This document shows positions 11,968 through 48,709 of a stretch of 64,000 nt of DNA, one piece after another. Both the position numbers and the translations under genes were made by a program. Origin of the DNA: Dehalococcoidia bacterium (GTDB taxonomy: Bacteria; Chloroflexota; Dehalococcoidia; Plut-88900). The notes beneath the pieces were generated by a model. The model saw only the letters and a program-made list of their open reading frames with translations. It was not told the origin of the DNA and did not search any database. Every line of letters begins with the position of its first letter. Position 1 is the first letter of the stretch. The stretch is taken from positions 544,001-608,000 of the forward strand of contig CBDFLQ010000007.1 in NCBI GenBank assembly GCA_965249275.1, read 5' to 3'.

Positions 11968-12053
11968 TGGGAGTCTCTACGGCGTAACGAAATATCAAGT
12001 TTGATTCAGGCACCGGCCCATTCTATGAAATGGCCTTAGACCTGTAAAGGTCG

Positions 12054-12838
12054 TGTACTCGTTCGGTAGATTAGTGACACACCGGAGTTTCATTCAGTCC
12101 TCCTGAGGCGGACCCGCCCAAGGCGGATGTTCCATCTTCGATTGTGGGGTTTCGGTTTCCGTTCTGTCTGTTAGGTTTTGGGAAGGCGATGAAAGGTCCG
12201 TGACTAGGATCCAGGCCGGAGTTTGTTGCCGAGCCGTCAGCGCCGGGCTGGCTTATCCCCACATGTTCTCGGCTGTGGTCAGGGTTGTGTGGGGCCGATC
12301 CTTCCGGCAGCGGCACTTGACCGGACCGCTGACGGGGAACATGCCGCCTGAGGCGGACTTTCAGAACCGGCGTCCCGGTGCATCGGTCGTAGAGACGGAT
12401 GGCGGGGACGGCGGGACAAACAAGGCACGAGGGCCTTGCTAGACCGGGGGTCGGTTGACCTACCCGGGAAACCGGCGCGCAATGGGCCGGAGTAAACGCA
12501 TCCGGTAATGGGAAGCGTTGAATCGGCAGGGGCGTCGTAGGACGGGGCCTGCCGCGTATAGTCTGTGGACCTTCCATCGCCTGGGCGCTGGGGAAGGGAT
12601 AGCCGGGGCCTTTGTATGAGGAGATGGCGGCGTTTGCTTGAGCCGTGGGGCGGCATGGGCCGCCCTTTGGGATGGGCTTAGACGTTGAGTCCTCGGGGCC
12701 GGGGCTGGTGTTCCCCCTGGGTTGTGTGTTCCTCCTTTGGGTTTAGGGTGAGTGGCTGGCCAGCCGGGGGTGAATATAGTACATGTGTGCAAGTCTGGTC
12801 AAGGGGTTCGTGTCACTTTTGGGAGGGCAAGAGGCTCA
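12054..12838. mobile_element. Non-autonomous ~785-bp element, copy A (IS481-like left end, decayed right end), between priA and def
   Basis: Left end TGTACTCGTTCGGTAGATTAGTGACA is nearly identical to copy B. About 140 nt at the left and 200 nt at the right are homologous to 41488-42288. Right end TGTCAC...CTCA. Flanks GGTCG/TGTCA match only partly. Confidence 0.65.
12773..12802 (-). promoter_or_regulatory. Sigma70-type promoter inside element A, with LexA-like box
   Basis: TTGACC-18nt-TATATT on the minus strand, with GCAC-ACAT-GTAC abutting the -10. Same position as the promoter in copy B. Confidence 0.55.
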
Positions 12839-30791: not shown

Positions 30792-30868
30792 GGTGGGCGT
30801 AGCCTAGCGGTTAAGGCACCAGGTTGTGGCCCTGGAGATCGAGGGTTCGAATCCCTTCGCTCACCCCA
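30792..30868 (+). tRNA. tRNA-His(GTG)
   Basis: G-1, acceptor GTGGGCG/CGCTCAC, anticodon arm CCAGG-TTGTGGC-CCTGG, GGTTCGAATCC, C73 and encoded CCA. Confidence 0.95.
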
Positions 30869-30902: not shown

Positions 30903-30978
30903 GCGCCTGTAGCTCAGCGGATAGAGCATCGGTCTTCGGAACCGAGGGTCGGGGGTTCGAATCCCTTCAGGCGCACCA
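30903..30978 (+). tRNA. tRNA-Arg(TCG)
   Basis: Acceptor GCGCCTG/CAGGCGC, anticodon arm TCGGT-CTTCGGA-ACCGA, GGTTCGAATCC and encoded CCA. Confidence 0.95.
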
Positions 30979-39603: not shown

Positions 39604-40419
39604 TTAGGCAGCGGGAGCTGGCTGGATGCTCGGGGTCCGGCGGTCCAGCACCGAGCCTCCCATGTATCCCAGCCAAATCGGCACCAGTGGCAGGATACAC
39701 GGCGACAGGAACGACAGTATGCCGCCCGCAAACGCTATTATTATCGATGCCCCGCCCATCCCCGTGACTTCGCTGCTGCCCGTTACCTCGGGTATGAAGG
39801 TGAAGTAGGAATTCAGCTGCTGCAGGGAGCCGGTCACAATGAGCGCTCCAATCAACACCAACAGCAGTCCGCTTATCAGCTCAATGAACTCGAGGTACGG
39901 GTTGACCTTCTTCAGCCACCGCTTGGCAACGCCTATGAAGGCCCCGACCAACAGGAATGGCAACCCCAGGCCCAGGGAGTACGCGAACATCAGCACCGCA
40001 CCCTGCCCTATCGAACCCTCCAGTGTCAGGGACAGGATCCCCGCCAGGATCGGGCCCACGCACGGCGTCCATCCTATGGCAAACGCTGCCCCCACCACCG
40101 CCGACCGCATTAGGTTCGGCTTGTCACCCGCCCCAATCCCGATTCCTCTTTGCCGGTACAGAATGCTGGTTAGCGGGCCGAACCGCACAATCCCGCTCAG
40201 GTGAAATCCCAGGATAATCAGTAACGTCCCCGCCCCGATCTCTAGCCAGTCCCGCCAACTCCCCGTCCCGAGGGAACCCAACAGCGCCCCCAGCCCCGTG
40301 AACACCAGCGAGAACCCGGCCACGAACGCTACTGCATGAATGAACGGCGCCGGCGAGAACCCGAGTTTCGCTAGGCCACTCGGTGCGGTCTGCTGCGCTC
40401 CTGTTCCGGGATTCACCAT
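39604..40419 (-). CDS. ccdA: Cytochrome c biogenesis protein CcdA, circularly permuted
   Basis: FAIGWTPCVGPIL and YSLGLGLPF are present. The normally N-terminal AFAGGILSFLSPCILPLVP block sits at the C-terminus. Confidence 0.85.
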   Translation of the reverse strand: MVNPGTGAQQTAPSGLAKLGFSPAPFIHAVAFVAGFSLVFTGLGALLGSLGTGSWRDWLEIGAGTLLIILGFHLSGIVRFGPLTSILYRQRGIGIGAGDKPNLMRSAVVGAAFAIGWTPCVGPILAGILSLTLEGSIGQGAVLMFAYSLGLGLPFLLVGAFIGVAKRWLKKVNPYLEFIELISGLLLVLIGALIVTGSLQQLNSYFTFIPEVTGSSEVTGMGGASIIIAFAGGILSFLSPCILPLVPIWLGYMGGSVLDRRTPSIQPAPAA

Positions 40420-40542
40420 AGCGCTAGCGGCTCCTCTCTTGTCCTGTAACCGTTACTCTTAGTATGTCAACAAAAGACCGGCTCGGGCAACAAGTCCCTC
40501 ACACCATTTAACGAATTACTCTAGCAAAAGTTGCCCATTGCA

Positions 40543-41379
40543 TCACGTGCTCTTCAATGACGGACTCGGACCACGGGGCCCTTCAGAACGCTGGCGCACC
40601 AGCAGAAACGCCCCGACTGCGAAGACCGCTACCATCGTTAGCAGAGATATTACATGCGCCTGATGCAAAGACCCTATTCTCCCCGGATCGTCCCGCGTGA
40701 ACTGCACAGCGAACCTTATAGCCGCATACGTCCCGAGATAGATCAGCATCACCATACCGTCGGGCTTCACCCGGCCGATGAGCCGCATTATGACGAAGAA
40801 CAGCAGTACGTCGCCCACCATCTCGTACGCAACGGATGGGTGATACGCAAGCTCCGACCCGCTCTCGGATACGGGAATCGCCGGTCTGCCCGTATTCAGG
40901 CCCGGCCAGTTGGCGTGGGTGTGGACCCAGCCCCACGGCAGACTCGTCCGGGTGCTGAAGTGCTCTCCATTGATCACGTCCCCCACCCGGCCAATAGTCT
41001 GAGCGACCAGCATCATGGGGGCGCTAATGTCGGCGATCTTGCCCACGGACTGCTTATTCAAAATCGCCCAGGTGACACCGGTAATCGTCCCACCTAGCAA
41101 AGCACCCCACAGCCCCACACCGCCATTCCAGATGGTGAATATCTTTACCGGGTCGTTTATGTAATAGGACCAGTTATCAAATACGTGAACCAGCCGAGCC
41201 CCCACCACCCCTCCCGGCACCGCCCACGCTGCGCAGGAATAGATGACCTGGGGGTCCATGCCCCTGTCCCGCGCAAGCCTCGCCGTGCCGAATACCGCAA
41301 ATGCCACCCCCAGGGCCGTGAATATCCCGTGCCACGACAACCCCCCAATCAGAAAGGGGTCCATGTTGATTTCAAGCAT
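40543..41379 (-). CDS. lgt: Prolipoprotein diacylglyceryl transferase
   Basis: SWHG, GARLVHV, WNGG..LWG, QTIGRVG..INGE, HPS..YE and RF.VQF.R motifs. Confidence 0.9.
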   Translation of the reverse strand: MLEINMDPFLIGGLSWHGIFTALGVAFAVFGTARLARDRGMDPQVIYSCAAWAVPGGVVGARLVHVFDNWSYYINDPVKIFTIWNGGVGLWGALLGGTITGVTWAILNKQSVGKIADISAPMMLVAQTIGRVGDVINGEHFSTRTSLPWGWVHTHANWPGLNTGRPAIPVSESGSELAYHPSVAYEMVGDVLLFFVIMRLIGRVKPDGMVMLIYLGTYAAIRFAVQFTRDDPGRIGSLHQAHVISLLTMVAVFAVGAFLLVRQRSEGPRGPSPSLKST

Positions 41380-41487
41380 CCTTGATCTCGGGCTCCGTCC
41401 TTATCGTATAAGTAGTCCGATCAGCTTCACTATCCGTTCACTTCACCCATCCAGTGTAGCCTCCCCGCCGAATGTCGGTCAATCCGC

Positions 41488-42288
41488 TGTACTTGTTCGG
41501 CAGGTTAGTGACACACCGGCCTTTTCTTCAGTCCTCCAGAGGCGGATGTTCCATCTTCGATTGTGGGGTTTCGGTTTCCGTTCTGTCTGTTGGGTTTTGG
41601 GAAGGCGATGGAAGACGCTTGCTGGACGCTACCCCCGTTCCTGTGCCTCGGGTGCTCCGACGCCCTGGGGCAAGGGCGTCCGGCCCGCTTTTGCCGCTGC
41701 TGCGGCCTCTGGGCCTGTATACGCTGGACATGGGCAGGGACCTTCAGGGCCACCGGGTCCGAGCCTGACTCCGGGGGGTTGGCTGCACCGCTTAAGGGCG
41801 GCTAGGAGGCTCGTCCAGCGTCCGGGTGGAGCCTCTTGCAGGCGTAATATGTCCAGGTTTGCCGGTGCGACCCGGAGCGCAGGGACCACCGGCTCCCGGC
41901 TTGATTGAGCGGACGGTGTACCGAGAGGACCTCGGCGCCGGGCCTATCCGACCGCTATTCCGCTTGAAGGAGCGGCATCTCCGTTAGGAGCCTCACATGG
42001 AACGATAGCGAACCAGGGCGTCTTTCCATCGCCTGGGGGTCAGGGAAGGGGGCACGGGACCCGGTGGGGATGAGGAGATGGCGACTTTCGCTTGTGCCGC
42101 GGGCCTGCGCGAGGGCCGTTGGGATGGGCTGAGGCGTTGAGTCCTCGGGGACCGGGGCTGGGCTTCCCCCTAGGTTGTGGTTCCTCCTTAAGGTAGTTGG
42201 GTTAGGTGGTCTAGACCTGGCTACAATATAGAACATACGTCTTATCATGTCAATAGGTTAATGTCACCACTCTATGTGAACGGGATCA
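41488..42288. mobile_element. Non-autonomous 801-bp element, copy B, with TG..CA ends, imperfect TIRs and 5-bp target duplication TCCGC
   Basis: TCCGC|TGTACTTGTTCGGCAGGTTAGTGACA ... TGTCACCACTCTATGTGAACGGGATCA|TCCGC. Homologous to 12054-12838. No transposase ORF. Confidence 0.75.
42225..42253 (-). promoter_or_regulatory. Near-consensus sigma70 promoter inside element B, with LexA-like box
   Basis: TTGACA-17nt-TATATT on the minus strand, with AGAC-GTAT-GTTC abutting the -10. Confidence 0.65.
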
Positions 42289-42374
42289 TCCGCCCGACCC
42301 TCCTTTACCATCCGTTATCGCGTTATGTTAAACTTGTTCGGTATTCATCCTCATATTTATAGGAGAGTGGCAAG

Positions 42375-43307
42375 GTGAAAATAGTAATCGATGCATTTTT
42401 AACTCATCTCACCGTGGAACGCGGCCTTTCCGCCAACACCCTATACGCCTACCGTAACGACCTCTACCAGTTCCTGGAGTTCATCGAAACGGGCCTCGGG
42501 CCCAGGAAGCGTGTCTCCAACTGGGGAGGCGTAGATCGCGACATGGTCGCCAAGTACGGCCTCGATCTCCGGGACCGCACCTTCAAGGACTCCACCATCG
42601 CCCGCAAGATCGCCGCCATCAAGTCTTTTTTCGCGTTCCTGGTCGACGAGGGTGACATCGAGACCGCCCCCACCGAGCATATGAACTCGCCGAAGGTTGG
42701 GCGGGCCCTGCCAAAAGCCCTCTCCGTCGAGGACATCAATAGGCTCTTAACTGCGACCAGGGAACGCAAGACCCCGGATGGCCGGCCTAAACCCGTCTCT
42801 CCCGACAGCCTCCGTGACTGCGCTATGTTGGACCTCTTGTACGCCAGCGGACTCCGAGTCACCGAGCTAGTTTCCCTCAACGTTGCCGACGTCGACATTC
42901 GCAACAACCATGTTCGATGTCTGGGCAAGGGCGGCAAGGAGAGGATCGTTCCCATCCACCAGGAGGCCTCCGAGGCCCTGCGGGAGTACGTCGAGCGAGC
43001 TAGGCCTCGCCTCCGAAAGAAGTTCGAAGAGCAGGCTCTGTTCCTGAACCGCCGCGGCGACCGTCTCACGCGGCAAGGCTTCTGGCTTATCTTGAAGGGT
43101 TACGCAAAAGAGGCCCAGATAAAGACCCCCATAACCCCCCACGTCCTCCGTCATAGCTTCGCCACCCACATGCTCAGAGGTGGCGCACCCCTCAGGCACG
43201 TCCAGGAGATGCTCGGCCACGCCAACATCTCTACGACCCAGGTCTACACCCACCTTGCAAGCGATCAGGTGCGTGACCAGTACGACAAAGCGCACCCCAG
43301 GGCCTGA
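42375..43307 (+). CDS. xerD: Tyrosine recombinase XerD
   Basis: VERGLSANT..AYRNDL, LYASGLRVTEL, GKGGKER, LTRQGFW, TPHVLRHSFATH and LGHA.ISTTQVYTH motifs. Confidence 0.92.
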   Translation: MKIVIDAFLTHLTVERGLSANTLYAYRNDLYQFLEFIETGLGPRKRVSNWGGVDRDMVAKYGLDLRDRTFKDSTIARKIAAIKSFFAFLVDEGDIETAPTEHMNSPKVGRALPKALSVEDINRLLTATRERKTPDGRPKPVSPDSLRDCAMLDLLYASGLRVTELVSLNVADVDIRNNHVRCLGKGGKERIVPIHQEASEALREYVERARPRLRKKFEEQALFLNRRGDRLTRQGFWLILKGYAKEAQIKTPITPHVLRHSFATHMLRGGAPLRHVQEMLGHANISTTQVYTHLASDQVRDQYDKAHPRA

Positions 43308-43376
43308 GTCTCGGCATTTGCGGCCCCGGTTTCGCGCCGACTATAATCAGACCATAGAAACGCATCAGGACTAAAC

Positions 43377-43745
43377 ATGGCAAAAAAGTCAAAGCGGTTC
43401 GCCGCCAAGCAATCCTCAAGTACCAAGCGAAAGAAGGGTAAGGCGGGACTGTCCCAGCGGCAGATCGAGCTTTCAGGAGTCTCTGCCCCCACTCCCACCC
43501 CTCCCCCCGCAGCCGACGCCGCGGATACAGGGGCCCCTGTCCTTGAGTCCACCGAAGCCCCTGAAACAGGCTCTCCCTCCGAGACCCCGGAGCAGGCTAC
43601 GCAACCTGGACCCCAGGTCGCCGCCCCCGCAGCTGTCGGTGCACCCTGGCGTTACGGCTACGTCCTCACTGACGTCAAGCGCATCGGCCTGATGACTGTG
43701 GTCGTAGCCCTTCTCCTCGGCGCCCTTACTTTCATCCTCAGATAG
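43377..43745 (+). CDS. Hypothetical protein with basic N-terminus, Pro/Ala linker and C-terminal TM helix
   Basis: Clean ORF with YGYVLTDVKRIG followed by a TM helix. Confidence 0.65.
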   Translation: MAKKSKRFAAKQSSSTKRKKGKAGLSQRQIELSGVSAPTPTPPPAADAADTGAPVLESTEAPETGSPSETPEQATQPGPQVAAPAAVGAPWRYGYVLTDVKRIGLMTVVVALLLGALTFILR

Positions 43746-44102
43746 CCCCCTCTCTCCATTCATTCCGGCCTGGGGCCGGGATCCAAGAGTGGGGGAATGG
43801 CCGCTTCCCCAGTGGGATTGTGACACCGCCCCGTTGACTAGCGCCGCATTGTTGTACTATCTTCCCCTCCCCACTTGCATCCATCACACACCATCAATTG
43901 CCGATTACAAAACAAGAAAAGCTAACGACACTTCTTCCACAACCTCTGACACCGAATTTTCTCCAGGATGATCAAACAATCAAACATCGTGCCTGATAGC
44001 TGCAAACAATCGTACGCAAAGCTGTTTCCACTTGATTGTCCGCTTTCCTTTTAATTGTCATATGTCAACTGTGCTCAGGCCGCATGCTAGAATTACCTGG
44101 TA

Positions 44103-45935
44103 ATGCCTACGCTCTCTATCGCAGACCAGGTAAAGGCCACGCCCACTAAACCCGGCGTCTACATCTTCCGGGACGCCTCCGGCAAGGTTATCTACGTCGG
44201 CAAGGCCGCGGGCCTGCGCAGCCGAGTCCGCTCCTACTTCGCCGACTCCTCTTCACTCACCCTCAAGGGTCGGCACCTCGCCGCGCGCATCGCCCAGTAC
44301 GAATACGTAGTCACCGATTCCGAGGGCGAGGCCCTCATCCTCGAAAACACCCTCATCAAGCGCTACAAGCCCAAGTACAACGTCCGCCTCAAGGACGACA
44401 AGACATATCCCTACATCAAGATAGACCTGGAAGAGGAGTTCCCCCGCGTCTACTTCACCAGGAGACTGGACGACGAGCGCGGCGCCCGATACTTCGGCCC
44501 CTTCGCATCCGCCAGCTCCGTCCGACGCACCCTGGACCTAATCAAGAAGCTCTTCCCTTACCGGTCCTGCACCAAGAACATCACCGGCACCGACCCGCGC
44601 CCCTGCCTCGACTTCTACATCCACCGTTGTGTCGGGCCGTGCATCGGGGCGGCGTCCAAGGACGAATACCGCCAGGTTATCGACCAGGTCATCCTGTTCC
44701 TCGAAGGGAAGCACGAGACCATAGTCAAAGACCTGAGCGCCAGTATGCACCAGGCCGCCGAGCGTCTCGAGTTCGAGCGCGCCGCCGCCCTCAGGGACCA
44801 GGTACGCGCCATCGACAGGGTATCGCAGACGCAGAAAGTCCACTCCCTACACCTCAAGGACGAGGACTACATAGCCCTGTCACGCGGCCAGGACGAGGCA
44901 TGGATCGAGATATTCTTTGTCCGTGCAGGCAAGACCGTAGGCCGAGACCACTTCATCATGGAAGGCACCCAGGACGAGGGTGACGCCGATATAATGGCCG
45001 GATTCATCAAGCAGTTTTACGACTCGGCATCCTACGTCCCGCCCCTCCTCCTTCTCCAGCACGCACCTGTTGACTCCACCTTGATTAACTCTTGGCTGGA
45101 GAGTAAACGAGGCCGCAGAGTCCATATGAAAGTCCCCCGCCGCGGCAACCGTAGAATGCTGCTGCAGATGGTCGCCGCCAACGCGGAGCAGGGGCTCGCG
45201 CAGCGCCACATCAAGTGGCTGGCCGACGCCGACGCCATCACCGGGGCCATGTCTGAGCTTCAGGAGCACCTCAACCTCCCCGAACTGCCCCAGCGTATGG
45301 AATGCTACGACATTTCCAACATTCAGGGCTCAAACCCCGTCGGCTCAATGGTCGTCTTCGAAAACGGAAAACCCAAGCCTGCCCACTACCGCAAGTTCAA
45401 GATCAAGACCGTCCAGGGCATCGACGACTATTCCATGATGCAGGAGATGCTCCGCCGACGCTTCCGCCGGCTCAAGGACGCCGTCAACGCCAAACCCGAC
45501 GGCTGGACCATCGTCCCTGACCTCGTCCTCATCGACGGAGGCAAGGGCCACCTTGGCGCCATACACCAGCTCTTCCTGGAACTCGGCATCGCCCATATCC
45601 CCCTGGCCAGTATCGCAAAGCGCTACGAGGAGGTGTTCCGCCCCGACAGCAAGGAGCCTATCATCCTGCCTCGCAGTTCGCAGGCCCTCTACCTTGTCCA
45701 GCGCATCAGAGATGAAGCCCACCGCTTCGCCATTACCTTCCACCGGCAACTGCGGAAGAAGAGCAGCGTGAGGTCGGCCATGGACTCTGTCCCGGGCATC
45801 GGGCCCAAACGAAAGAAGGCCCTCATCCGCAGGTTCGGCACGGTCAACGCGATACGCGAGGCCGACACCAGTGAAATCGCAGCCGTGGTCGGGATGACCC
45901 AAAAGCTCGCCGAAATTGTCAAAGAGCACCTCTAA
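44103..45935 (+). CDS. uvrC: Excinuclease ABC subunit C
   Basis: PGVY..IYVGKA..LR.RV.SYF, YNVRLKDDK, ECYDIS, LIDGGKG, RDEAHRFA motifs and HhH. Confidence 0.96.
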   Translation: MPTLSIADQVKATPTKPGVYIFRDASGKVIYVGKAAGLRSRVRSYFADSSSLTLKGRHLAARIAQYEYVVTDSEGEALILENTLIKRYKPKYNVRLKDDKTYPYIKIDLEEEFPRVYFTRRLDDERGARYFGPFASASSVRRTLDLIKKLFPYRSCTKNITGTDPRPCLDFYIHRCVGPCIGAASKDEYRQVIDQVILFLEGKHETIVKDLSASMHQAAERLEFERAAALRDQVRAIDRVSQTQKVHSLHLKDEDYIALSRGQDEAWIEIFFVRAGKTVGRDHFIMEGTQDEGDADIMAGFIKQFYDSASYVPPLLLLQHAPVDSTLINSWLESKRGRRVHMKVPRRGNRRMLLQMVAANAEQGLAQRHIKWLADADAITGAMSELQEHLNLPELPQRMECYDISNIQGSNPVGSMVVFENGKPKPAHYRKFKIKTVQGIDDYSMMQEMLRRRFRRLKDAVNAKPDGWTIVPDLVLIDGGKGHLGAIHQLFLELGIAHIPLASIAKRYEEVFRPDSKEPIILPRSSQALYLVQRIRDEAHRFAITFHRQLRKKSSVRSAMDSVPGIGPKRKKALIRRFGTVNAIREADTSEIAAVVGMTQKLAEIVKEHL

Positions 45936-45951
45936 CCCCGCTCCCCCAAAC

Positions 45952-46848
45952 ATGCCCGATCAAACGCAAAACGCGCTGACAAACCTACAGGAGGGAGTCC
46001 GACTCCTCGACCAAGGTCAGATCAATGAGGCAATCGGCTTATTCGATCTCGCTATCCGGCTCGACGGTACGTTGGTGGACGCTTACCTCCGCCGCTCCGA
46101 GGCCCACAATTTCAAGGGTCAGGCCGGCAAGGCAGTCACCGACGCAACCAAAGCCCTGATGCTCGACGCCCAAAACGCCGGGGCGTACGTCGACCGCGCC
46201 GCCGCATATGTCAACATGGGCAATTTCGAGCGCGCCCTCGCCGACTCCAATGAAGCCATCGCACTGAAGCCCACCGCCGCAGCCCACGTCAACCGGGGCG
46301 CCGCCCACAGGGGTTTGGGTAAAGTCGTCATGGCACTCGGTGATTTCAACAAAGCAGTCGGCCTCGACCCTCGGTATCCCCTCGCCTACAGCCACCGAGC
46401 CAGCGCCTTCCTAACAATAGGCGCTTTCGATAGAGCGATTCAGGACACCACCGCCGCCATTGACCTGGACCCGCACCTGCCCCAACCCTATATCGATCGC
46501 GGTGAAGCCTACAGACACAAAGGTGATTTCGATGCAGCCGTCAAGGACGCCTCCACTGTCCTGAGTCTGCAACCCAATCTCGTCATTGCGCTGGTAAACC
46601 GGGCCGCAGCCTACCTTGACCAGGATTATGCCCCCGACGCCCTCGCCGATTCCGAGGCCGCCCTTAACCTCGACCCGGACAACGTCCTCGCCATTAACAA
46701 CCAGGCCGTGGCACTGGCCAAGATGGGCCGTACGAAAGACGCCCTCGACTCCCTCGCCCGCGCCCTAACGCTCGCCCCGACCGACGAAGTTCGAGCCCAT
46801 ATAACCATGGTCATGGACCGGCTTACCGGCGATCAGTCGCCTTCTTAG
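45952..46848 (+). CDS. Tetratricopeptide repeat protein
   Basis: Repeated AY..RA.AY..G....A..D...A..L.P units. Confidence 0.88.
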   Translation: MPDQTQNALTNLQEGVRLLDQGQINEAIGLFDLAIRLDGTLVDAYLRRSEAHNFKGQAGKAVTDATKALMLDAQNAGAYVDRAAAYVNMGNFERALADSNEAIALKPTAAAHVNRGAAHRGLGKVVMALGDFNKAVGLDPRYPLAYSHRASAFLTIGAFDRAIQDTTAAIDLDPHLPQPYIDRGEAYRHKGDFDAAVKDASTVLSLQPNLVIALVNRAAAYLDQDYAPDALADSEAALNLDPDNVLAINNQAVALAKMGRTKDALDSLARALTLAPTDEVRAHITMVMDRLTGDQSPS

Positions 46849-46945
46849 CAACATGTCGGTTGCTTGTTGAGGCACCGGATGAAAGTGTCGCCTCTCCACT
46901 TGGTGTAAAATTGACCTACGTCGTCTGATCCCTTTCAACTATCTA

Positions 46946-47614
46946 ATGCGATTCATAATCACCTTGACCCTAATCGTGGCCCTCCTGGGCTTTGCCGCAG
47001 CTTGCAGCTCGGGAGCAGCGCCTACGGCCACCCAGCCCGCGCCCACCCCACCCCCGACCACCCCCCCGGCGACCCCCACCCCAGTCCCTACCGCCCTGAT
47101 CGAATGGTCGGATGAAGACTGCATATTCCGACCCCACGGCGAGTTGGGAGAGCTAACCAGGGTCACGCGTACATATGTCGAGAACGAACCTAAGCGCAAC
47201 GTCGAGCGCCTATTCCTCAAATTCCACCAGTCTGAAGCCGAATCGACCATCCTTCGCTGCGACATGAACACAGCGGGACTCTTCTCGACCTGGTGGGTGC
47301 AGTCTTTCCCCACCGAACAGGACGCCCAACGTCTCTTCGAGTCCCTCATTCTTGTCACCCGCCCCGGAGTCGATAGGCTTAACCAAAACCCTCGGTCCTG
47401 CGCCCTCATCAGAGCCGGAAAGGACGGGCAAGACAGCTACAACCTGGATTTCGTAGACAAGGGCATCTGCGAAAGCAGCGTCTTCAACGGGCTCAGCGGG
47501 ATCGTAATCTATGGCAACACTGTCATAGGCATAGACTCCCAGTTCTACGAAGAGTTCTTTGAGGCTCTCCTGGTCCACGCCAAGGCCCTCGTAGACAAGA
47601 GGACCTCCTCCTAG
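46946..47614 (+). CDS. Putative lipoprotein with Pro/Thr linker
   Basis: Signal peptide ending FAAAC, followed by a PTPPPTTPPATPTP linker. Confidence 0.75.
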   Translation: MRFIITLTLIVALLGFAAACSSGAAPTATQPAPTPPPTTPPATPTPVPTALIEWSDEDCIFRPHGELGELTRVTRTYVENEPKRNVERLFLKFHQSEAESTILRCDMNTAGLFSTWWVQSFPTEQDAQRLFESLILVTRPGVDRLNQNPRSCALIRAGKDGQDSYNLDFVDKGICESSVFNGLSGIVIYGNTVIGIDSQFYEEFFEALLVHAKALVDKRTSS

Positions 47615-47615
47615 C

Positions 47616-48449
47616 TTGCGTGTCCCCGGCCTGTCCCCGACTTCACCTCTGCTTACCAGTGCCCCGACGCGTCCCATACTAACCCTCCGCGCTCTATTCG
47701 AAAACAGGTTCGTCAAGGAGGGTTCGCTCCTGGTCCTCGGGTACATCGTCTACATGTCCCTGCGCCACGTCTTCCTCGAAGAGGTTGAGGCAGTCGGCCG
47801 GACAAACGCCCTCAAAGTAATCGATATCGAGAAATTCCTGGGCATCTACTGGGAGCCCGCACTCCAGTCCCGCCTCCTCTCCGAGGCCTCGTGGATCGTG
47901 ACCTTCTTCAACTGGGCCTATTCTCTGGGTTTTCTACCTGTAATAGTGCCCGGGGCCGTGGCACTCCTCTGCCTCCGCTACGATTCATTCGTCTATTTCC
48001 GAAGGGTGTTCCTCATAAGCTACGTGATTACATGGGTGCTGTGGTTAACCCTTCCCGTCACCCCACCCAGGCTGATGTTAGAAGAGGGCTTCGTAGATTC
48101 CATAGAGGTCATGGGGCCGGCATTCTATAACAGCAAGCAGTCCATCGCGTACTATAACCAACACTCCGCCATGCCCAGCATGCACTTTGGGTGGACCCTG
48201 CTCTTCTCGATAATGCTCCTGAAGACCGGGAGCCGAGCCCTGCGCCTATTCGGTGTCATCCTCCCAATAGTGGCCTTCGCAGCGATAGTCGTGACCGCCA
48301 ACCATTTCTTCCTGGACGCGGTAGTCGGGGGTGGCATCATTGGTCTGGCCTTCGCTATATACCATCTGGCAGCCCGCTCCCCGAAACCACGTGCCTCCTC
48401 CACTCGATCATCGACAATGATAGCACGAAGTGATATCATTTCATCGTGA
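47616..48449 (+). CDS. PAP2/Aur1-like (inositol phosphorylceramide synthase-like) membrane protein
   Basis: P.TPPRL, NQHSAMPSMHFGW and TANHFFLDA motifs. Start uncertain. Confidence 0.8.
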   Translation: MRVPGLSPTSPLLTSAPTRPILTLRALFENRFVKEGSLLVLGYIVYMSLRHVFLEEVEAVGRTNALKVIDIEKFLGIYWEPALQSRLLSEASWIVTFFNWAYSLGFLPVIVPGAVALLCLRYDSFVYFRRVFLISYVITWVLWLTLPVTPPRLMLEEGFVDSIEVMGPAFYNSKQSIAYYNQHSAMPSMHFGWTLLFSIMLLKTGSRALRLFGVILPIVAFAAIVVTANHFFLDAVVGGGIIGLAFAIYHLAARSPKPRASSTRSSTMIARSDIISS

Positions 48450-48709
48450 GGCGGAAGCACCGCAGGACTCTCGCCGCGATATTAGAAACCCCGACTCGGT
48501 CAGGAATTCGTTGGGAAGACATAGAATCGCTCCTCCTAGCCTTGGACGCCGAGATAGAGGAGCGGGCCGGATCCCGGATCGGTGTACGGCTAGAATTGCA
48601 TTTCGCAGTTTTCCATCGTCCTCACCCTCAACCGGAAGCCAGCAAAGATCTTGTAAAAGCCGTCAAACACCTTTTAAGAGAGGCAGGGATCACCAATGCT
48701 GACCTATAA
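48446..48709 (+). CDS. HicA family toxin
   Basis: KHRRTL.AI...IRW.DIESLL.AL...GSR...FHRPHP pattern; overlaps the HicB gene. Confidence 0.85.
   Translation: MRRKHRRTLAAILETPTRSGIRWEDIESLLLALDAEIEERAGSRIGVRLELHFAVFHRPHPQPEASKDLVKAVKHLLREAGITNADL

Follow-up and report, generated by a model that had tools for sequence, protein, structure and literature searches.

What kind of genetic unit is the 801-bp segment that lies between lgt and the gene of a XerD-like recombinase (both neighbours assigned by Pfam) in a Dehalococcoidia bacterium of the phylum Chloroflexota, and what determines the place at which it stands? The segment occupies positions 41488-42288 of the window analysed here, a stretch of 64,000 nucleotides from contig CBDFLQ010000007.1 (positions 544,001 to 608,000, assembly GCA_965249275.1). 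A first-pass annotation made from the letters alone had described it as a mobile element lacking a transposase, with a promoter and a large structured RNA as its cargo. We favour, with a probability of roughly 70%, the reading that the segment derives from an insertion sequence (IS) of the IS481 family and is non-autonomous, that it was inserted in one orientation 5 bp before the -35 hexamer of a host promoter, and that it carries a promoter of its own together with a non-coding unit of ~700 bp. The most notable result is the promoter-anchored, oriented insertion site, which is common to the element and its autonomous relatives.

Direct reading of the letters confirmed the coordinates and bases given for the segment in the first-pass annotation. 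It is flanked by TCCGC at 41483-41487 and at 42289-42293; the left end, directly after the first TCCGC, reads TGTACTTGTTCGGCAGGTTAGTGACA (41488-41513) and the right end reads ...TGTCACCACTCTATGTGAACGGGATCA up to 42288, with TCCGC next. By eye, the two ends form imperfect inverted repeats identical at ~15 of 26 positions, the matches forming one block at the tips (TG..C..GTTC) and another at the inner ends (GTGACA). Moreover, the segment holds no credible open reading frame (ORF), as had been stated: the overlapping ORFs reach at most 98 amino acids (aa), except for a 221-aa frame that starts in the lgt region.

The segment is one member of a multicopy family. In the genome from which the window comes (the own genome, a 2.9-Mb assembly of 7 contigs that is 87% complete), BLAST with the right-hand third of the segment retrieves 54 copies, the left-hand end gives 49 matches, and an nhmmer profile of the conserved 5' segment described below again retrieves 54. 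There, 24 downstream ends of the 41488..41516 type and 21 upstream ends of the 42261..42288 type are present. The 18 own-genome copies with both outer ends include 10 with perfect 5-bp duplications and 3 more that match at 4/5. Over three species, 20 of 41 two-ended copies carry perfect duplications and a further 12 match at 4/5, against 0/41 with a match of 4/5 or better for control 5-mers taken just outside, and the length of 5 bp is constant.

Comparison of orthologous sites gave the same picture. The lgt-xerD site is precisely empty in genome G003, which reads ...GGTCAATCCGCCCGG... with one TCCGC where the element would be and whose flanks are 91-95% identical to the window; the site is also element-free in G007 and is occupied in G001, G004, G008, G002 and G005. 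A second site (C6:177385-178152 in the own genome) is occupied also in G002 and unoccupied in G005, with 10 nt between the flank matches, and in G003, with 137 nt vs 98 expected. The segment has thus been mobile, as seen from its presence and absence at orthologous sites among congeneric species. The element found at the lgt site on contig C4 of the own genome, within an identical duplication, shares 95.6% identity in its body with a different paralogue, and the element at this site in G001 has yet another core. Since C4 and G001 hold different variants there, either the site has been used repeatedly or its occupant has been replaced. As for the contig itself, C4 (9 kb) is a 92-94% identical second version of window positions 39783-48576 and probably represents another strain that was binned with this assembly; in the same way, contig C3 is a duplicate of part of C6.

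The insertions follow a rule, in which the downstream end of the element is followed by the 5-bp duplication and then by a TTGAC-type, -35-like hexamer of a co-oriented host promoter. Indeed, an independent promoter scan of the window called the lgt promoter at exactly this place (41453..41482, minus strand; TTGACC, 18 nt, TACACT), its -35 starting 5 bp past the downstream end of the element, with the lgt ORF (40543-41379, minus strand; Pfam LGT) downstream. In order to obtain a set of target sites, 67 ends from three species were reduced to 39 non-redundant sites, because many ends are orthologous between species. The bases after the duplication at these 39 sites are T in 35, T in 33, G in 34, A in 26 and C in 24. 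TTGACA is matched at 4 or more of its 6 positions at 25 of the 39 sites compared to 3% of random genome positions, and a -10-like hexamer stands at a spacer of 16-19 in 30 of them, a figure given without a random control. According to crude gene calls, a co-oriented gene lies downstream of 25/25 copies that possess the downstream repeat, whereas the orientation of the downstream gene is split 17 to 10 for copies without it.

Furthermore, the rule extends beyond the element itself. At 22 distinct sites of IS-type copies (20 from metagenomes, one in G005 and one in G007), TTG is present at +6 to +8 in 13 and a -10-like hexamer in 19, and these relatives show the same geometry in contigs of much lower G+C. 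A different IS of 1306 bp was seen in 10/10 copies fetched to lie 4 bp before the -35 box of the promoter that the elements themselves carry. The fixed 5-bp spacing argues for a mechanism, and one fixed distance together with one orientation is hard to explain by survivorship alone. The first-pass annotation had missed both this promoter-anchored rule and the fact that roughly half of the copies are without terminal repeats. In the portions of the open-access literature that were available, no description of a -35-targeted IS or of this element family was found.

The ends of the element point to its parent. Both of them (about 28-30 nt each) align with the terminal repeats of an IS of ~1.07 kb. 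The downstream terminal repeat (41488..41516, minus strand ...GTGTGTCACTAACCTGCCGAACAAGTACA) aligns with the downstream ends of the IS in G005 and of the metagenome IS on contig L196, its last ~30 nt being nearly identical to both; the upstream terminal repeat (42261..42288, minus strand TGATCCCGTTCACATAGAGTGGTGACAT) aligns with the upstream ends of the same ISs, the letters set against it being (T)GATCTCGTTCAGAAAGATAGGTGACAC. A metagenome scan for the downstream end gave 23 contigs of 41-52% G+C, with many matches at contig ends, as expected of repeats, and the conserved segment of the RNA side was present in 0/23 of them. Contig L196 (1227 nt) is essentially a whole IS, in which an upstream-like repeat precedes an open 351-aa ORF that is followed, almost letter for letter, by the element's downstream repeat. 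The best NCBIfam match of this ORF is NF033577 (IS481), at 192.1 bits and below the curated cut-off of 224, with IS3 second at 85 bits; its relatives carry HTH_23/28/29/32 and rve/rve_3 domains. The transposase family is large in metagenomes, with 7975 of 8000 scored proteins at E <= 1e-30, mostly on contigs of ~1.1-1.4 kb.

Within the genus, G005 holds a frameshifted copy of this IS with 57-60% identity to the L196 protein, bounded by TGATCTCGTTCAGAAAGATAGGTGACAC and ...GTGTGTCACTAATCTACCGGACGAGTACG and with a perfect GTGGA duplication on both sides, and G007 holds a copy with an internal stop. The other 7 genus genomes, the own genome at its 87% completeness included, gave no L196-type match at E <= 1e-10. 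Automatic end-finding on the metagenome IS copies, aimed at their target duplications, gave mostly non-matching 5-mers, for which contigs chimeric across repeats or wrong end coordinates are possible reasons. The earlier assignment to IS481, made from the pattern of the ends, is supported because the element's ends match the inverted repeats of an IS481-like IS, and, in line with the search that had been suggested, a transposase gene with the same repeats and with IS481 as its best family was found, its frame open in L196 and broken in G005 and G007. Together with the duplications and the empty sites, the IS-matching ends support the proposal of a non-autonomous family mobilised in trans.

No recognisable part of the transposase gene survives in the element. 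A tblastn comparison detected no resemblance between its interior and the transposase (best E = 0.81), and its DNA matches the IS only at the ends (the terminal ~50-70 nt); an origin of the interior as a decayed transposase gene was therefore rejected. In an alignment with the parental IS, the -35 box of the element falls on the GTGTCA ahead of the transposase start codon, from which two substitutions would be enough to produce it.

Other ISs were considered as mobilisers and rejected. The rve ISs of the own genome (329 aa in 12 copies, 401 aa in 8, 381 aa in 2) have different ends and no locus of theirs scored against the element ends; the 1.2-kb IS5-like family (11 copies) is unrelated; and the ends of the 1306-bp rve IS do not match. 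The other IS families of the own genome are active-looking; examples lie at C7:509988-511118, C5:20854-22220 and C5:329744-330947. The 329-aa rve protein belongs to an IS of ~1.09 kb with the hairpin ATTCCGAGGCTCCGCGAGGAAT in its ends, a sequence that is also found as solo palindromes in the own genome. The ISs of ~1.36 kb (401 aa) and ~1.23 kb (381 aa) adjoin CCCTCTCCC...GGGAGAGGG palindromes, and the IS5-like copies are 99.4-100% identical, with CTAG flanks. The 1306-bp IS (L127:1472-2777 in G005; also L126 and L128-L135) encodes a 423-aa rve protein with a weak IS481 match (50 bits), is inserted at the same point in 10/10 copies, between GTGACACGAA-CCCC and TTGAC, and was not among the PF00665 (rve) matches in the own genome.

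The interior of the element was examined next to its ends in alignments read on the window minus strand. These display a GTGACA(C/T) motif, 7 nt later the promoter CCCCTTGAC with TATATT after 17 nt, a segment of ~200 nt with invariant blocks, a core of mostly 340-410 nt and a C/A-rich segment of ~130 nt. In the window, the element's own promoter (42225..42253, minus strand; TTGACA, 17 nt, TATATT; 11/12 of the consensus by promoter scan) reads into the element. A regular expression picked up the GTGACA..CCCCTTGAC motif in 50 of the 54 copies, and inspection of the alignment showed it in those that remained. A promoter as cargo had been predicted, and indeed a consensus promoter is found in all 53 copies in which the region is assembled, while the promoter and the two inner segments are conserved in all 54 own-genome copies.

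The conserved 5' segment lies at 42035..42216 (minus strand; 67-copy alignment) and contains the invariant blocks AAGGAGGAAC, GAGGACTCAACG, AGCCCATCCCAA and GCCATCTCCTC and one small covarying hairpin. In some species the GAGGACTCAACG...CCCATCCCA motif is doubled within one copy at a distance of 85-88 nt (L047 and L095 of OY764147.1; G004, G008), which is an internal duplication of part of this segment. The variable core follows at 41619..42017 and the conserved 3' segment at 41517..41602 (both minus strand), the latter with the C/A-rich tract ...CCCAAAACCCAACAGACAGAACGGAAACCGAAACCCCACAATCGAAGAT and one copy of a small unit, TCCGCCTCTGGAGGA, at ~41533-41553. In the own genome, the 3' segment of a copy holds from 0 to 4 of these units in tandem (~15-21 nt, in some cases with GGAACA), and the unit is also found inside the 5' segment of a few copies, e.g. 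C6_42205, C6_148357 and C7_805019.

The cores fall into about 7-10 mutually unalignable types, each of which includes repeat-bearing and repeat-less members. The core types thus cut across the two classes, which points to recombination among copies. No coding signal was found in the core: alignments of four types show no 3-periodicity and gap lengths that are mostly not multiples of 3. One type is open in one frame in 8/13 copies, but neither its gap lengths nor its variable columns follow a period of 3 and the frame is interrupted in the remaining copies; protein coding was rejected.

The two conserved segments are joined by a helix of 20-24 bp, found by repeat finding, of which the first 11-12 bp are constant and the next 8-12 bp are subfamily-specific yet complementary. 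In the window its strands lie at 41603..41618 (plus-strand letters AGGCGATGGAAGACGC) and 42018..42034 (plus-strand letters GCGTCTTTCCATCGCCT), both assigned to the minus strand of the element. Over 106 haplotypes, cognate strands give a mean of -34.5 kcal/mol against -28.9 (standard deviation 0.5) when permuted, and 0/300 permutations reach the observed value, a test that is inflated by the relatedness of the copies and whose point is that each subfamily has its own matching extensions. A 4-bp hairpin in the 5' segment displays 6 double changes, with 94% of cells paired compared to 7-68% when the partners are slid, and covariation is limited to the one long helix and this one small hairpin. 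Three further approaches were set aside. A strand call from G-U vs A-C counts rested on a bias in the 53 own-genome copies that vanished with 106 haplotypes; RNAalifold gave different folds for the two strands, and no weight was put on the lower energy of the G-rich strand, to which G-U pairing gives rise; and in 142 copies of the 5' segment, mutual information mainly picked up the division into subfamilies and was of no use.

The stretch 42024-42146 is covered, in many paralogous pieces, by contigs that derive from two studies with four RNA libraries in all; most of the core and 42159-42341 are bare in this comparison, which excluded paralogues of less than 88% likeness, so that the gaps are not evidence of absence. 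The promoter motif and these contigs hint at transcription of the unit from its own promoter, which is taken to be likely. The promoter and terminator scan found no terminator-like site on the minus strand of the element.

Not all copies have both outer repeats. In addition to those without both terminal repeats, weighed below, 7 of 54 own-genome copies have only the downstream repeat. The repeat-less copies have sharp shared boundaries, starting at the inner GTGACAC and ending at ...CAACTGAATAA, and since the GTGACAC with which every copy begins corresponds to the inner end of the IS repeat, they appear to descend from repeat-bearing ones. Other repeated palindromes often adjoin them. In their flanks (e.g. 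at C6:415811, C7:461512 and C7:980375 of the own genome), repeated GC-rich palindromes such as GGGCGACCGGCCGGTCGCCC come after the 3' end of several copies, and others have a shared segment of ~100 nt ahead of the promoter.

A second family member stands in the window between priA and def (neighbours by Pfam) at 12054..12838, minus strand, with its downstream repeat at 12054-12079, its own promoter at 12773-12802 and no outer upstream (right-hand) repeat. The def promoter (12020..12048; TTTACA, 17 nt, TAGAAT) starts 5 bp past the end of this copy. The homology of this segment had been recognised in the first-pass annotation and is confirmed, the left end and the conserved inner flanks being common to both copies and the core being of a different type. 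The description as a second diverged copy 29 kb away was correct as to the copy and understated as to the family, of which a 27-nt motif (<=2 mismatches) detects 22-57 copies in each of 9 genus genomes. Elsewhere in the own genome, the copies at C6:81722 and C5:615787 lie directly upstream of tRNA gene promoters; the tRNA genes of the window (30793-30865, 30903-30975) are unrelated to the element.

By BLAST, the family is present in all 8 other species of the genus, so the count of copies and congeners that had been called for shows it to be both multicopy and shared, and in 0 of 3 other genera of the same taxonomic family and 0 of 29 other such families. The 27-nt motif was found in 0/392 other genomes of the class Dehalococcoidia searched. 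This distribution rests on BLAST and on a motif with at most 2 mismatches, which diverged relatives outside the genus could escape. An exact-motif scan of species genomes gave at least 85 loci, and among the matches listed all lie in six 'MAG: Dehalococcoidia bacterium' chromosomes; neither the 5'-segment motif nor the end motif occurred in viral contigs.

If the segment is an oriented derivative of an IS481-family IS, the following course may be proposed. The DDE (rve) transposase of the parental IS, supplied in trans, would move the element, and this transposase, or a complex formed at promoters, would read the promoter and set both position and orientation, which would provide a harmless landing site. 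The unit would then be transcribed from its own promoter, on the window minus strand and toward the downstream host gene, and the long helix would form in the RNA, where it could be a processing site. Our best guess is that the transcript serves the element itself or alters expression of the downstream gene. The repeat-less copies would be immobile remnants, or may have spread in another way.

Several results weigh against this reading. About 29 of the 54 own-genome copies have neither terminal repeat. The promoter and the two conserved segments are nevertheless retained in them, and the transposon model does not explain how such copies spread. An unbroken transposase of the parental type was found in 0/9 genus genomes with the L196 protein as query at E <= 1e-10. 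The -10 counts stand without a computed control, and selection for harmless sites cannot be fully separated from targeting by these data. As regards an RNA, the full-length fold is no more stable than shuffles (z = 0.16 and 0.04 for the two strands), RNAalifold on 67 copies of the 5' segment finds 1 of 20 pairs compensatory with a covariation term of -0.18, and the helix contains 38 G-U vs 49 A-C oppositions over the 106 haplotypes, which gives no strand call; the long helix could equally be an inverted repeat at the DNA level. The RNA-library contigs come without strand or ends, may contain DNA and leave 42159-42341 uncovered. As for Rfam 15, no match was obtained among 4227 models even at E up to 10, the best E-value within 41300-42400 (0.11) belonging to an unrelated viral motif, and in the window only two tRNAs pass the gathering threshold. 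The comparison with Rfam that the first-pass annotation had advised thus matched no family, and its "large structured RNA" is not established.

A more far-reaching version of the favoured reading is tentative. It holds that a subgroup of IS481-like elements targets active sigma-70 promoters and that the transposase-less derivative is a vehicle for a promoter-driven functional RNA of ~700 nt with a processing clamp. Recognition of promoters would take place through direct reading of the -35/-10 pair or through docking on RNA polymerase that is already bound there; the 20-24-bp clamp would be a processing site that releases interchangeable core RNAs of ~400 nt; and the RNA would be kept, by the host or by the element, even in immobile copies because it is functional, e.g. 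in tuning adjacent promoters or in controlling the parental transposase.

About equally doubtful, in our estimate, is that the family is primarily a multicopy host gene for a non-coding RNA, whose capture between IS481-type ends came second and spread the gene further. The repeat-less half of the copies, with its common boundaries at GTGACAC before the -35 and at ...CAACTGAATAA on the 3' side, would fit such a gene, as would the mixture of repeat-bearing and repeat-less members in each core type and the maintenance of the family in all 9 genus genomes. However, no mechanism was seen by which a gene without repeats could have reached about 29 dispersed copies, the GTGACAC start is the inner end of the IS repeat and suggests descent from repeat-bearing copies, and the supposed gene comes without an attached function, a partner protein or a known RNA family.

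Somewhat less probable still is an ordinary large MITE (miniature inverted-repeat transposable element), whose inner segments would be cis-acting in transposition or reflect young shared ancestry, the helix would be a DNA repeat and the promoter a by-product of the IS 5' region, with no RNA function. The weak thermodynamic and covariation signal, the absence of an Rfam match and the unbiased G-U/A-C counts agree with this, and so does the -35 box at two substitutions from the parental GTGTCA before the transposase start codon. On the other hand, copies that are without both terminal repeats, and so unable to transpose, still keep the promoter and both segments; unrelated sequences take the place of the core, whose length nevertheless remains for the most part within 340-410 nt; and the helix extensions differ by subfamily yet remain complementary, a property that protein-binding repeats do not need.

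That insertion is wide and that only insertions upstream of promoters are tolerated, i.e. survivorship instead of targeting, is in our view improbable, even though intergenic promoter-upstream sites are the least harmful and many of the sites are old and common to several species. This explanation predicts a spread of distances and both orientations, whereas a single distance (T at +6 in 35/39, T at +7 in 33/39, G at +8 in 34/39) and a single orientation (25/25) are seen. Moreover, the IS-type relatives show the same geometry in contigs of much lower G+C, the different rve IS sits 4 bp upstream of the -35 of the elements' promoters in 10/10, and three different variants of the element are found, each in another lineage, at one and the same lgt site and within one and the same duplication. 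Very improbable, finally, are repeat-less copies that arose through an RNA intermediate in the manner of short interspersed nuclear elements: their sharp common boundaries lie near the predicted transcript ends, but every copy includes the promoter, which precedes the predicted start, poly-A-like tails are absent, and no link to a reverse transcriptase was seen, no search for one having been made.

The favoured derivative of an IS481-family IS can be set beside known systems. IS481 of Bordetella is the type member of the IS481 family, and its target is NCTAGN. As in this family, the inverted repeats of the element start with TG(T) and the duplication is short and fixed at 5 bp, and the parental IS measures ~1.07 kb and has a single ORF of 351 aa with IS481 as its best NCBIfam match. 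In contrast to IS481, the element has no transposase gene and its target is a position relative to a promoter -35 and not a short palindrome. Elements of the IS200/IS605 type make no target duplication, have subterminal hairpins where others have inverted repeats, and use a Y1 transposase; such an origin does not agree with the presence of duplications and inverted repeats and with an rve-type partner enzyme.

Among bacterial MITEs, which include MITEAba12 and whose prokaryotic forms were reviewed in 2024, the Correia elements of Neisseria are a further example. Like MITEs, the element is non-autonomous, intergenic and trans-mobilised, with inverted repeats and duplications, and some MITEs have promoter activity. 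MITEs, at roughly 100-400 bp, differ from the element, which at 740-900 bp has an interior better conserved than its terminal repeats, a complete promoter, a long internal unit with swappable cores and a strict site and orientation. A classical MITE is a few hundred bp long and has no conserved interior, whereas the two-ended copies measure 717-1199 bp and have a conserved promoter and conserved segments.

Safe-haven targeting is a feature of Tn7, which inserts at attTn7 and has TGT ends and 5-bp duplications, and of the yeast elements Ty1, Ty3 and Tf1, which insert near transcription start regions. The insertion of the present element is likewise site- and orientation-specific at a gene-sparing place. 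Unlike the multi-protein Tn7 and the yeast retroelements, its parent is a single-protein IS481-like element, and the landmark is a sigma-70-type promoter of which dozens of sites per genome are used.

With regard to large RNAs, the unit belongs to the 600-800 nt size class of OLE, GOLLD, ROOL, HEARO/omega RNA and raiA, and the family resembles HEARO in its many copies and in its association with a mobile element; unlike the large RNAs of Rfam, the unit has no model match, weak covariation support and a middle part that is not conserved. The helices that enclose rRNAs within precursor transcripts are cut by RNase III. The helix of the element, at 20 bp or more, similarly flanks a core of several hundred nt downstream of a strong promoter, a likeness which is pure analogy and known here from sequence alone.

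The interior of the element, with its promoter, conserved segments, covarying clamp and swappable cores, is better kept than its ends. This is unusual for a MITE and suggests either a new multicopy RNA or a new cis-acting transposon architecture. If the target rule is mechanistic, it would explain how 22-57 copies can be held in 3-Mb genomes without breaking genes; it would then be testable with a one-protein system and could be a tool for promoter-proximal integration. Integration with a promoter as landmark, if true, would be a bacterial counterpart of the promoter-targeted integration of yeasts. Furthermore, through each co-oriented copy a host gene acquires, about 750 bp upstream, a near-consensus promoter from which no terminator separates it, and the family may therefore reshape transcription across the genus.

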